A stretch of 64,000 bases of DNA from Colwellia polaris (GTDB lineage Archaea > Nanohalarchaeota > Nanosalinia > Nanosalinales > Nanosalinaceae), in the NCBI GenBank assembly GCA_047617785.1, contig JBLGBK010000002.1, positions 1-64,000 on the forward strand, given 5' to 3'. The notes under the pieces were generated by a model. The model was not told where the DNA came from. It saw only the letters and a list, made by a program, of their open reading frames with translations, and made no database searches. Shown one piece after another: positions 5,272 through 14,922 of this stretch; the first letter of the stretch is position 1; the number at the start of each line of letters is the position of its first letter. A program made the position numbers and the translations under genes.

Positions 5272-5345
5272 TGGACCCTCAGGGATTTGAACCCTGGGCC
5301 TTCCGCTTGCAAAGCGGACGTTCTGCCAGACTGAACTAAGGGCCC
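5272..5345 (-). tRNA. tRNA-Ala(TGC)
   Basis: Reverse complement folds as a cloverleaf: acceptor GGGCCCT/AGGGTCC, anticodon arm TCCGC-ttTGCaa-GCGGA, T arm GGTTCAAATCC; no encoded CCA. Confidence 0.96.
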
Positions 5346-5683: not shown

Positions 5684-8853
<3,170 letters not shown>

Positions 8854-9653: not shown

Positions 9654-9728
9654 GGGCCCGTAGCTCAGCCTGGACAGAGCAACCGGCTTCTAACCGGTAG
9701 GTCGAGGGTTCAAATCCCCCCGGGTCCG
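9654..9728 (+). tRNA. tRNA-Arg(TCT)
   Basis: Acceptor GGGCCCG/CGGGTCC, anticodon arm ACCGG-ctTCTaa-CCGGT, T arm GGTTCAAATCC. Confidence 0.96.
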
Positions 9729-10995: not shown

Positions 10996-12132
10996 TTAAG
11001 ATTTCAAACCTCGATACATCAACAATCCCGAAACAGTGACGCATACAGCTATTACACCGATAAATACCGGGGTTCCCAGATACTGAAGTACTATGCTTGT
11101 AACGGCTATCGGAAGCAAGAGGAAAGAGTTAAGGACTACATACTTCAGGAAGACCTTAGAGTCGTAAAGTTCCGAATTAGGATTTAAACCGGTTAGATAA
11201 GACACTAAGCTGAGAGAGACAAATGTTGAAGCATAAAGTGCGAGAAGAGAAAGCGCAAACTGGCCTGAATAAAAGTAAGCAGATACACCTAGAAATAGTG
11301 TGGTCAATGGAACCGATAGGAATACGAAAGCTCTAAACTTAGATTTAACCAGCATTTCCCTATTAATAGGTAAGTGGAGATAATCCTGTTCCTCGTCAAA
11401 TCTGTTAACCCAGTTATAAACTGAGATTGTGCTCATACCAAGCAGTACGCTGTATGTAATCAACGGATTCTGCATGAAGACCTTCTCGAAAGGGAGGTTA
11501 AGAACTGCAAGCCAGTAAACACCGGTAAGGAGTAGCAGCGTGAAGAAAATCTTGAGCAACCCTCCCGCAGACCTTGAAACATCTTCTATAGTCTTAGAAG
11601 TTAAAGCACCTCTCTCAGATACGTAAGATAGATTGAAAAGCGAAGGTGAATGCATACCTGTTCTAGAAAGGATAAAAGATACAACTGCGCCTCCCAGAAA
11701 GCCCGCAAATATTTTCAGAACCACTATAGGCATGAATACCATGTATGCTACACTAAATCCTGCGAAAATCGGTATTATGAACATCAGGCTGTAGTATATA
11801 GCATCATTCAATACGAAAAGACCTAATAGTTTGTTTTGAGATATTGGAAGCGTTCTAGAAGTATAGACCAGCAGACTTCTATCGCCGATAAGATTTTCTG
11901 CTTCATCACGAGAACTGAAACCCACCAACCCCGCAGCCAGACCTAGCAAAACACTGAAACCTGTCAGACCGAGAGTTACTTCTGTAGCTGCAAGCTCAGA
12001 ATAAATTCTGAATGGGTATAGAGTTACCAGCGTGATTGCAAACACAGTCAGAGGAAATAGCTTGAAGTACCGACCTTTATACATATCTGCTTGCATCCGG
12101 TACTGCTCTTTCAGCATTCGTTTCAGTATCAT
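10996..12132 (-). CDS. ABC transporter permease (exporter type)
   Basis: Many TM helices; overlaps the upstream ABC ATPase by 4 nt. Confidence 0.8.
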   Translation of the reverse strand: MILKRMLKEQYRMQADMYKGRYFKLFPLTVFAITLVTLYPFRIYSELAATEVTLGLTGFSVLLGLAAGLVGFSSRDEAENLIGDRSLLVYTSRTLPISQNKLLGLFVLNDAIYYSLMFIIPIFAGFSVAYMVFMPIVVLKIFAGFLGGAVVSFILSRTGMHSPSLFNLSYVSERGALTSKTIEDVSRSAGGLLKIFFTLLLLTGVYWLAVLNLPFEKVFMQNPLITYSVLLGMSTISVYNWVNRFDEEQDYLHLPINREMLVKSKFRAFVFLSVPLTTLFLGVSAYFYSGQFALSLLALYASTFVSLSLVSYLTGLNPNSELYDSKVFLKYVVLNSFLLLPIAVTSIVLQYLGTPVFIGVIAVCVTVSGLLMYRGLKS

Positions 12133-12806
12133 TGAGTAGCGAATAGATGTTTCTTCAAGTTTTCAACTTCAGATATATTTTCCTGTATTCTACCGTCATC
12201 TAGAAACAATACATTGTCACACATTTCTTCGGCTAGATCAAGTAAGTGAGTACAGAGGAAGATACTGCCAGTATTCTCTGCGTATTCTTTGAAGAGCTTC
12301 TTTGCCTCTTCCTGTATAAATGGATCCAAGTTGATCAATGGTTCGTCGATGAAGACAAGCTCTGGTTCGTGGAAAAAGGCCTGTATAATCATAAGTTTCT
12401 GTCTCTCTCCCTTAGATAACTCTTTGGTTGGTTTATCCATTTTACCTTCTAGATTGAACCTTTCTATCCATTTCTGTTTAACTATTTCTGTATCACGTAT
12501 ATCTGCGATGTACTGAAGATATTCATTACCAGTGAGAAAGCTTGGCGGATCTTCTCGTTCTGGTAGAACTCCCAGATGTTTTCTGAGCTCTACTGGATCG
12601 TCCCACGGGTCTCTTCCAAGAACTTCGACTTTTCCTTTATCTCTCTGAATCTGGCCTGTCAGTATCTGCACGGTTGTAGATTTACCTGCCCCGTTAGGCC
12701 CTATTAGGCCAGTTATGCTGTTTTCCTCCATCTCAAAGCTTAGGTCTTCTAGAACCGTATTGCCACCATAGGACTTGGAGAGATTATCTATTTCTATTAC
12801 AGACAT
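12129..12806 (-). CDS. ABC transporter ATP-binding protein
   Basis: GPNGAGKST, LSKGERQK, FIDEP, CTH motifs. Confidence 0.95.
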   Translation of the reverse strand: MSVIEIDNLSKSYGGNTVLEDLSFEMEENSITGLIGPNGAGKSTTVQILTGQIQRDKGKVEVLGRDPWDDPVELRKHLGVLPEREDPPSFLTGNEYLQYIADIRDTEIVKQKWIERFNLEGKMDKPTKELSKGERQKLMIIQAFFHEPELVFIDEPLINLDPFIQEEAKKLFKEYAENTGSIFLCTHLLDLAEEMCDNVLFLDDGRIQENISEVENLKKHLFATQ

Positions 12807-12884: not shown

Positions 12885-12985
12885 ATTAGAGTGGTTCAGA
12901 GGTGTTCAAAGTTTTCATCACCCAGGATTTTGTATCTCCCGTCAGAAACTTAGGTTCCTCATCATCACCGGAAAAACCATTTAAT
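12885..12985 (-). ncRNA. Box C/D methylation-guide sRNA, predicted target 23S A-loop G2553 (E. coli numbering)
   Basis: On the minus strand: box C RTGATGA (within 12959-12968), D' CTGA (12942-12945), stem CGGGA/TCCTG, C' GTGATGA (12915-12921), D CTGA (12896-12899), terminal stem TGGTT/AACCA. D guide TGAACACCT pairs with 23S 8414-8422. Confidence 0.85.
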
Positions 12986-12987
12986 AG

Positions 12988-13503
12988 CTATTCTTCGTGG
13001 TATACTCCGCTATAACCTTCTTCTGTCTCCCGAATCTTTTCAAAGACTATCTGATTCAAACGCGCATTCTCTTTAATCTCGACTCCTTCAGAATTGTCAA
13101 CTGAGATCTTGAAGCTGCCGGTACCTGTAAAACCCGAGTCCCATACTGCATTTTCAATAGTCACTCCCATGCGCAGAAGGGATGAGCGCGGATAGGCATA
13201 CCCTACAAGATTATTTGGTATGTCAACCTTCTCGTTCATCACAACCTTGTATGTTCCTTGTTCAAGCTCCCACCATCCATACTCGTCTTCTTGATTCTTT
13301 TTCTCTGGTTGAATAGGTGTTGACTCCGGTACCTCTCGTTCATCATTCGAGAAGTCCAGTTTACCAGAGTCTTCATATCTGTGGATTTCAGCTGCTGTAA
13401 GATCAAAACCTTGTGGCGTCAACTGTGTATCAAGATGGACATAGTTCTGTATCAGTCCTTGCTCTTCAATCAGTTCACGGAGCTGTTCTCGATTCAAAGT
13501 CAT
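12988..13503 (-). CDS. dut: Trimeric dUTPase / dCTP deaminase family
   Basis: GFDL, PRSSLLRMG, AVWDSGFTG, RLNQIVF and C-terminal YSGVY motifs. Confidence 0.88.
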   Translation of the reverse strand: MTLNREQLRELIEEQGLIQNYVHLDTQLTPQGFDLTAAEIHRYEDSGKLDFSNDEREVPESTPIQPEKKNQEDEYGWWELEQGTYKVVMNEKVDIPNNLVGYAYPRSSLLRMGVTIENAVWDSGFTGTGSFKISVDNSEGVEIKENARLNQIVFEKIRETEEGYSGVYHEE

Positions 13504-13611: not shown

Positions 13612-14922
13612 ATGATTGACAGAACATACACACACGATATAACACCGGAAGATGACGGTGAAACAGTCAGCGTAGCTGGCTGGGCACATGAAATCAGAGA
13701 CCTTGGAGGTCTAACGTTTGTAATTCTACGAGACCGAGAGGGGCAGATCCAGGTAACATTCAAAGAAGATGATAATGAAGAGCTTTTCGAGAAAGCGCAG
13801 GAAATAGGTAAAGAAGACCTTATTCACGTAACAGGTACTGTAGAGGAGACAGACCAAGCTCCAGGCAACAGAGAGCTTAAACCAGATTCTCTAGAAGTTA
13901 TCGGAGAAGCAGAAAGCCCACTACCTATGGACATCTCCAAAGATATCGATTCCGATCTATCAACACGACTCGATAATCGATTTATCGACCTTAGAAAGCC
14001 AGAAATTCACGCAATCTTCTCACTCAAATCCAAAGCAATGAACGCAATGGAAGACTGGTTTGAGGAAGACGGTTACATCAACATCGACACCCCTCTAATT
14101 TCAAAAGGAGGAGCAGAAGGAGGAGCAGAACTTTTCCCAGTAATCTACTATGAAGAAGAAGCCTTCCTATCCCAAAGCCCACAACTATACAAGCAGATGC
14201 TTATGGCTGCCGGATTCGACAAAGTCTACGAAACAGGAACAGCATTCAGAGCAGAAGACTTCGCAACTTCACGGCACGTCTCCGAGATCGCGATGTTCGA
14301 CGTAGAACTCGCATTCATAGAAGACCACCACGACGTAATGGACGTACACGAAGAAAGCCTGCGACACACACTAAGAGAAGTTAAGAAGAACGCAGCTGAT
14401 GAACTTGATATCCTGGACGTCGATCTAACAGTACCGGAAGAGGACTTCCCACGCATCACATTCGAGGAAGCACGTGAAATCCTGAAGGAAGAATACGATC
14501 ACGTTCCTGAGGACGAAGGCGATCTAGACACCAAAGGAGAGAAGCTTCTCGGAGAATACTTCGAGGAGAAAGGACATCCAGCATTCTTTGTCATCGGTTA
14601 TCCTGGCGAAAAGTTCTACTACATGCAGGAAATCGAAGGTGACGACGTAGCAAGCCGAAAGTTTGACCTGATCTACAAAGGGCAGGAACTATCCAGCGGA
14701 GGACAGAGACAGCACGACTTCGACACACTGGTTGAATGGATGGAGAAACAAGGCGTTGACAAGTCCAACTTCAGCTTCTATCTAGAAGCGTTCAAGTTCG
14801 GTATGCCTCCACACGGAGGATACGGAATGGGGATCGACAGACTGATCCAGAAGATCGCAGAACTGGACAACATCAAGGAAGCAATTCTATTCCCACGAGA
14901 TCCAGACAGACTAACGCCTTAA
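13612..14922 (+). CDS. aspS: Aspartate--tRNA ligase (archaeal type, probably non-discriminating)
   Basis: [10 protein letters not shown] fold, [42 protein letters not shown]; start placed at ATG 13612. Confidence 0.96.

Follow-up and report, generated by a model that had tools for sequence, protein, structure and literature searches.

The locus described here raises the question of whether a short intergenic stretch in the genome of a nanohaloarchaeon encodes a box C/D sRNA and, if so, whether that RNA directs ribose methylation within the A-loop of 23S rRNA. G2553 of the A-loop (E. coli numbering) forms a base pair with C75 of tRNA in the A site, and is ribose methylated in haloarchaea and eukaryotes. 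Three ribose methylations have been mapped in the 23S rRNA of H. marismortui, and the one at G2553 is among them (PMC2584109). Pattern and Snoscan searches for a guide to U2587/G2588 in H. volcanii failed (Grosjean et al. 2008, PMC2584109), 'RlmE?' was proposed for both Um2587 and Gm2588 in haloarchaea, and the activity responsible for haloarchaeal Gm2588 was left open after those searches in 2008 (PMC2584109). Guides to the neighbouring nucleotide have been described: sR25 of Pyrococcus abyssi is a box C/D sRNA predicted for Um2552 (PMC2584109), and U2552 is a predicted guided site in five species, with C2556 the only other A-loop site named in the accessible text (Dennis et al. 2015, PMC4644070). 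In the accessible main text of the archaeal literature no guide RNA is credited with G2553, although supplementary tables may hold one; a review mentions G2553, in its accessible text, only as a modified site (PMC7994747), and nanohaloarchaea and guide RNAs were not found combined among the matches listed in our literature searches.

The window, that is, the whole 64,000-nt stretch of DNA that was analysed, belongs to a genome assembly of 787,359 bp that is 96.55% complete. A sequence-only reading of the window had proposed consensus C, D', C' and D boxes with internal and terminal stems, directly downstream of dut on the same strand. We found each of these boxes and stems on the minus strand, and the upstream neighbour, on that strand as well, is indeed an ORF with Pfam DCD and dUTPase matches. 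The features are as follows.

12988-13503, minus strand: dcd/dut-family ORF, directly upstream of the sRNA (Pfam DCD, 73 bits; dUTPase, 38 bits)
12893..12969, minus strand: the complete box C/D sRNA at its minimal length, bounded by the two arms of the terminal stem, as read from the sequence
12969-12967, minus strand: 5' arm of the terminal stem, GGU, pairing with ACC at 12893-12895 (3 bp)
12966, minus strand: G12966, the single base between GGU and box C, first base of the K-turn loop
12965-12959, minus strand: box C, AUGAUGA, invariant in eight homologues
12958-12946, minus strand: D' spacer and guide, GGAACCUAAGUUU, 13 nt
12945-12942, minus strand: box D', CUGA, invariant in alignment A1 (described below)
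12923..12941, minus strand: internal stem-loop between boxes D' and C', CGGGA (12941-12937) pairing with UCCUG (12927-12923), 5 bp with a 9-nt loop
12921-12915, minus strand: box C', GUGAUGA, of which UGAUG is invariant in A1
12914-12900, minus strand: D spacer, AAACUUUGAACACCU, 15 nt
12908-12900, minus strand: D guide, UGAACACCU, the last nine bases of the spacer; C12904 is the fifth base 5' of box D
12899-12896, minus strand: box D, CUGA, invariant in eight homologues
12895-12893, minus strand: 3' arm of the terminal stem, ACC, followed by the U-rich CUCUAAUUUUACCUUUUCC
12129-12806, minus strand: ABC ATPase ORF, on the other side of the gap

The sRNA occupies part of a 181-nt gap between the dcd/dut-family and ABC ATPase ORFs, both on the minus strand, and no ORF of at least 40 amino acids overlaps it. 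Box C lies within two overlapping UGAUGA motifs, the second of which was taken as the box because the GGU/ACC stem then abuts box D; a K-turn requires the terminal stem to stand directly against box D. This stem is short, with only 3 bp. Both stems were recovered by ViennaRNA, and the stability of the whole fold was at the level of shuffled sequences (z = -1.0), as would be expected of an RNA whose guides must stay single-stranded. The spacers, 13 nt between boxes C and D' and 15 nt between C' and D, compare with a canonical length of 12 nt in archaeal box C/D sRNAs. Only 18 nt separate the stop codon of the dcd/dut gene from the terminal stem, and a dcd homologue was found upstream of the sRNA, on its strand, at 21 of the 30 loci examined, within about 50 nt in 18 of those. 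This closeness suggests co-transcription and processing; the sRNA may thus share a transcript with dcd/dut, perhaps as a 3' extension of its mRNA. Runs of U follow box D in the window sRNA and in the copies of relatives. The 18 public sequencing runs listed for the locus are all of the DNA type.

One explanation to be weighed at this stage is that short motifs have come together by chance in an intergenic region, the boxes being only 4-7 nt long and no Rfam match exceeding its threshold. At the gathering level, Rfam returned no C/D family in the 64-kb window, the matches being the 23S rRNA and two tRNAs only; below threshold (E up to 10), we obtained sR5 with 18.1 bits (gathering score 40), snoR116 with 16 (47) and snoR1 with 14.6 (49). 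The best-scoring family, RF01304 (sR5), has a match that spans the four boxes of the window sRNA, but membership was rejected because its 18.1 bits fall short of the gathering score (40) and nothing outside the four boxes aligns. Against a chance arrangement, a strict four-box pattern matched once in the 787,359-bp genome and not at all in each of 20 Markov-simulated genomes, and a looser pattern that included the terminal stem gave the same single match and none in each of 10 simulated genomes. Homologues reaching E = 6e-18 across genera, with two covarying stems, are likewise hard to reconcile with chance, and this conservation already refutes it; we regard the probability of such an arrangement as negligible.

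The conservation was seen at several levels. BLAST of the locus against 40 relatives identified same-genus homologues with E values of 1e-20 and 1e-18, together with homologues in three other genera. A covariance model, R1, was built from eight copies (alignment A1), all of the type that would select G2553, and scored 82.4 bits on the window locus (12888-12976). R1 matched 51 of the 70 genomes of the order (which are all the genomes searched of the phylum), including 46 from the window's own nanohaloarchaeal family, which has 49 other members in the set, and matched 24 of the 28 genomes with a completeness of 90% or more, although A-loop targeting by every match is partly built into the search, as R1 includes the guide itself. 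Completeness is 72-81% for the three family genomes that R1 did not match. Among 74 match positions, 70 were examined as the homologue set, leaving out four weaker second matches, and 67 of these 70 hold a four-box RNA; the remaining three, which represent other families of the order, show a divergent sequence with no CUGA box D. Two loci from another family of the order, L083 and L104 (genomes G026 and G037), show a divergent scaffold with a 5-bp terminal stem (CCUGC/GCAGG), GAUGAAGA-type boxes, a guide GUGAACACCC, and UUUUA where box D CUGA would be expected.

Both stems of the family covary, as judged from these homologues. Terminal stems of the 67 RNAs average 3.0 contiguous pairs; swapping the flanks among the sequences brings this mean down to 0.76 (1.22 at most in 1000 shuffles). 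The stem sequences are diverse, for example UUUC/GAAA, GGC/GCC, UCGA/UCGA and GGUA/UACC. For the internal stem (66 homologues), 89.4% of cells are paired versus 49.4% after shuffling, and the covariation score is 0.867 versus 0.204, a value reached by none of 500 shuffles, in an alignment that was fitted to the same structure and that consists of related sequences. All five internal pairs have changed on both sides, and shifting the partner by one column lowers pairing to 51-64%. While the 5' part of the spacer, the loops, the stems and the D' guide vary, GAACACCU followed by CUGA is kept, GAACACCUCUGA is invariant in the eight sequences of A1, and the core of the D guide is kept across at least 20 genera. 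By this comparison, the guide core is held constant while its surroundings drift.

We then consider what this guide could pair with. The sequence-only reading had given the D guide a duplex with 23S rRNA and a register on the G of the A-loop. Recomputing the pairing gave the same duplex, and the fifth-base count and the A-loop alignment agree on that G. The relevant features are as follows.

5798-8752: 23S rRNA gene, containing the predicted A-loop target
8414..8422, plus strand: predicted target GGGUGUUCA in 23S helix 92 (the A-loop), with G8418, corresponding to E. coli G2553, as the predicted site of 2'-O-methylation

The guide at 12908-12900 and 23S positions 8414-8422 form eight Watson-Crick pairs and one G-U pair (G8414-U12900). 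By the fifth-nucleotide rule from box D, C12904 stands opposite G8418, the G of UGUUC. The E. coli number of G8418 was assigned by alignment with the H. marismortui A-loop and from the equivalence of its UmGm 2587/2588 to 2552/2553 (PMC2584109); by the same A-loop alignment, U8417-G8418 is the tandem U2552/G2553 of E. coli and Um2587/Gm2588 of H. marismortui. As for the surroundings of the target, the 23S gene is the only rRNA gene that Rfam found in the 64 kb, which hold neither a 5S nor a 16S match, and it has a tRNA gene on either side, at 5272-5345 (minus strand) and at 9654-9728 (plus strand); the 16S gene lies on another contig (C15:7518-8994), so that the rRNA genes appear to be unlinked in this genome.

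Taken alone, the 9-bp match is weak evidence and is not significant, since 450 of 5000 shuffled guides (9%) reach some 8-bp Watson-Crick site in the rRNA and tRNA of the genome (7,212 nt). The evidential weight comes instead from where the match lands and from its conservation. A real C/D sRNA with another target, such as an mRNA or an RNA outside the assembly, and with a coincidental A-loop match would fit the shortness of an 8-9 bp match and the 46 runs of at least 8 bp that the D guide finds across the whole genome (both strands, up to two G-U pairs). Among stable RNAs (23S, 16S and 32 tRNAs; 7,212 nt), however, the A-loop is the only site offering the D guide eight contiguous pairs from position -2; at least 20 genera share the guide core, and no other target could be as invariant across them; and a paralogue meets the same loop one base over. 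We therefore hold another target to be very improbable. The target core, GGGUGUUCACC, was identical in all 28 of the 23S fragments fetched from relatives; with a target this invariant, covariation between guide and target cannot be shown.

The paralogue in relatives carries a D guide, AACACCCA followed by CUGA, that is shifted by one base and selects U2552. Examples are L085-L103, such as G024:C6:2454-2533 and G002:C11:5631-5717. On the 23S rRNA of the window genome, the U2552-type register falls at position 2620 and the G2553-type at 2621. The 67 four-box RNAs have D guides as follows.

D guide ...AACACC-N followed by CUGA, selecting G2553: 35 of 67 RNAs
D guide ...ACACCC-N followed by CUGA, selecting U2552: 29 of 67 RNAs
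D guide GAACACCUC followed by CUGA, the G2553-type with a one-base insertion, selecting U2552: 3 of 67 RNAs

The U2552-type RNAs were recovered by a model made only from G2553-type copies. Pattern scans for either guide beside a GAUG box gave the following counts.

G2553-type: 46 of 70 genomes, 41 of the 49 other family genomes, 5 hits with the reversed-pattern control
U2552-type: 34 of 70 genomes, 34 of the 49 other family genomes, 2 hits with the reversed-pattern control

The three one-base-insertion copies, L041, L046 and L065, are from a single genus (G056, G054 and G055), and the pattern scan detected no separate U2552 paralogue in these three genomes. In addition, the two A-loop guides are combined in each of six single RNAs, namely L074-L078 (G052, G050, G013, G016 and G010) and L044 (G046); five of them have the G2553 guide at D' and the U2552 guide at D, and one has the reverse order. 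Rearrangement of the two A-loop guides within a single scaffold has evidently occurred repeatedly. Offset-by-one paralogues, dual-guide RNAs and insertion variants together indicate that the guide register is under selection.

These data also bear on the possibility that the element is a real A-loop C/D sRNA under which U2552, or both U2552 and G2553, becomes methylated, a 15-nt spacer shifting or relaxing the ruler. The C'-D spacer is 15 nt in the window sRNA and 13-14 nt in most G2553-type RNAs; among the 29 U2552-type D guides, 27 have a spacer of precisely 12 nt. Spacer length affects both the efficiency and the precision of archaeal sRNPs, and this too speaks for a displaced site, as does the finding that no U2552 paralogue was detected in the window assembly. 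However, relatives maintain a pair of guides that differ in register by exactly one base, and both are present in six RNAs, an arrangement hard to understand if register were irrelevant; moreover, the fifth-base rule counted from box D is established (PMC2584109). A site other than, or additional to, G2553 is thus unlikely.

As to the missing paralogue, neither ACACCC-N-CUGA (the U2552 guide) nor GACAUCG-N-CUGA (a guide for U2504, described below) occurs anywhere in the window-genome assembly. In the same-genus genome G002, the U2552 paralogue lies just past a tRNA, and contig C15 of the window genome ends (14656-14667) inside that tRNA, with no other contig overlapping. Because the expected place of the paralogue is beyond the end of C15, the missing U2552 guide was not taken as a true absence. 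The broken tRNA is apparently a tRNA-His, from comparison with G002, and no tRNA-His was found elsewhere in the assembly.

The D' guides tell more about the family than about the window copy. In 46 of the 67 RNAs, the D' guide is GACAUCG-N followed by CUGA, which is complementary to CGAUGUC in 23S and thereby selects U2504, in the peptidyl-transferase ring; the target corresponds to 8365-8371 of the window (CGAUGUC), 48-49 nt upstream of the A-loop targets, a stretch that we take to be the U2504 region of E. coli. No report of a 2'-O-methyl group at U2504 was found in the accessible literature. For the relatives' D' guides classed as 'other', no convincing conserved target emerged with the rRNA of the window genome as a proxy. 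In the window copy, the D' guide GGAACCUAAGUUU has no run of at least eight contiguous base pairs from position -2 in the 23S, 16S and 32 tRNAs of the genome, and in the predicted fold it can fold back onto box D'. It is also unlike the corresponding guides in G001 and G002, two genomes from the same genus, and is thus probably an orphan or decaying.

An orphan D' guide that can fold back on box D' would suit an RNA that serves as a folding chaperone for helix 92 in 50S assembly without methylating it, or a functionless, decaying relic. Double guides binding sites within 100 nt have been read as chaperones (PMC6009581), and the D' and D targets in relatives (U2504, and U2552 or G2553), being 48-49 nt apart, are within this range. 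On the other side, the four boxes keep their consensus, the catalytic machinery is intact (see below), and the exact one-base registers of both paralogues are conserved, which would be needless for a chaperone. A chaperone or relic accordingly seems to us quite improbable, and methylation of G2553 remains the preferred reading. Since the relatives carry a U2552 guide, and often a U2504 D' guide, on the same scaffold, the role of the family would be modification of the A-loop and the peptidyl-transferase centre, and the family appears to be the lineage's RNA-guided route to both.

The proteins expected of such a route were found. Presence of fibrillarin, Nop5 and L7Ae had been named as a check on the initial proposal, and all three genes are in the window genome, with matches of 236, 163 and 92 bits, respectively, each above its Pfam cut-off; the genes for Nop5 and fibrillarin are direct neighbours on contig C3, which also carries the L7Ae gene. 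As for the stand-alone enzyme, Pfam FtsJ matched above cut-off in 14 of 14 control genomes, including Haloferax volcanii; in the window genome, the only match, of 18 bits, was to KsgA (RrnaAD, 138 bits). RlmE/FtsJ was not detected in the 70 nanohaloarchaeal genomes of the phylum, 28 of them at least 90% complete, in which the best FtsJ match was at most 38 bits. FtsJ matches above the Pfam cut-off in 42 of the 70 genomes were rejected as RlmE, all being partial and at most 38 bits; of the three inspected, the two best were RsmB/F (160 and 180 bits to PF01189) and the other was KsgA (138 bits to PF00398). A search with TIGR00438 (rrmJ) also gave nothing real in the window genome and four closed relatives.

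We conclude that the window element is a genuine, conserved box C/D sRNA belonging to an uncatalogued family, and consider it probable that it guides the formation of Gm2553. In the proposed mechanism, the sRNA would assemble with L7Ae, Nop5 and fibrillarin into an sRNP and would bind by base pairing, through the nine guide bases 5' of box D, to helix 92 in nascent 23S rRNA. Opposite the fifth guide base lies G8418 (E. coli G2553), and this is the nucleotide to which fibrillarin would add a 2'-O-methyl group. The window guide, the one-base-shifted paralogue and the failure to find RlmE in the lineage together suggest that, in these halophiles with reduced genomes, the A-loop methylations have passed to an RNA-guided system. 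On balance, we lean somewhat towards a wider model in which this family has dispensed with the near-universal RlmE and both Um2552 and Gm2553 are made by fibrillarin through two paralogous guides offset by one base, sometimes fused; the sRNA of the window would then be the first archaeal guide with G2553 as its assigned site. The earlier statement that RNA-guided modification of the A-loop is retained in a reduced halophilic genome holds as regards the presence of such a guide, but 'retained' does not follow, as acquisition of the guide may have accompanied, or followed, the loss of RlmE in the lineage.

If this model is true, protein-only and RNA-guided routes would be interchangeable for the most conserved rRNA ribose methylations, and Gm2553 could depend on fibrillarin. 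It would also explain why a whole fibrillarin/Nop5/L7Ae set is kept for very few guides in DPANN-type genomes of about 0.8 Mb. The pair of A-loop guides offers a small, well-defined system for the study of single-nucleotide register control in C/D sRNPs. In addition, a helix-92-complementary guide (the complement of GGUUGUUCG) would provide a template in searching for the origin of haloarchaeal Gm2588. The helix 92 sequence of H. marismortui and Natrialba magadii is GGUUGUUCGCC. A metagenome scan for TGATGA, 3-9 bases and CGAACAAC-N-CTGA returned at least 120 stretches, with a four-box arrangement in none of 80 loci among the matches listed; the loci among the matches listed were mostly from non-saline samples.

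The kind of system described here is well known, and what is new is the target, the paired-register arrangement and the lineage. The sR25-type guides for Um2552 resemble the window sRNA in using the same RNP, in addressing helix 92, and in having the guide upstream of box D and following the fifth-base rule. The window sRNA differs from them in that it targets the neighbouring G2553 and has a D'-C' stem-loop (14-21 nt) and spacers longer than 12 nt, and there is no sequence-family relationship between the two, the Rfam matches being sub-threshold only. The C/D guides of H. volcanii, comprising the pre-tRNA-Trp intron, the guide for Cm34 of tRNA-Met and a Gm1950 candidate, likewise belong to a halophile with a small and possibly non-canonical repertoire, but have different targets (PMC2584109). 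With regard to introns, a tRNA-Met(CAU) gene is predicted outside the window at C3:41215-41380, with a 91-nt intron holding two GAUGA motifs, each with CUGG or CAGA 13-15 nt later; the arrangement may be due to chance, or the intron may hold a degenerate C/D-like guide comparable to that of haloarchaeal pre-tRNA-Trp. RlmE/FtsJ (RrmJ), the stand-alone Um2552 enzyme, acts on the same loop and makes the same 2'-O-methylation as predicted here, but is protein-only. In yeast, snR52 guides Um2921 and Spb1 makes Gm2922, the equivalent of G2553 (PMC2584109, PMC11542601), the human enzyme being FTSJ3 (PMC11542601). Yeast and the nanohaloarchaea would thus be alike in having a tandem A-loop UmGm with at least one of the two methyl groups RNA-guided (as predicted for the latter); whereas the G in yeast is served by a stand-alone FtsJ-family enzyme, in the lineage of the window, in which no FtsJ-family A-loop enzyme was found, the G is itself the predicted RNA-guided site.
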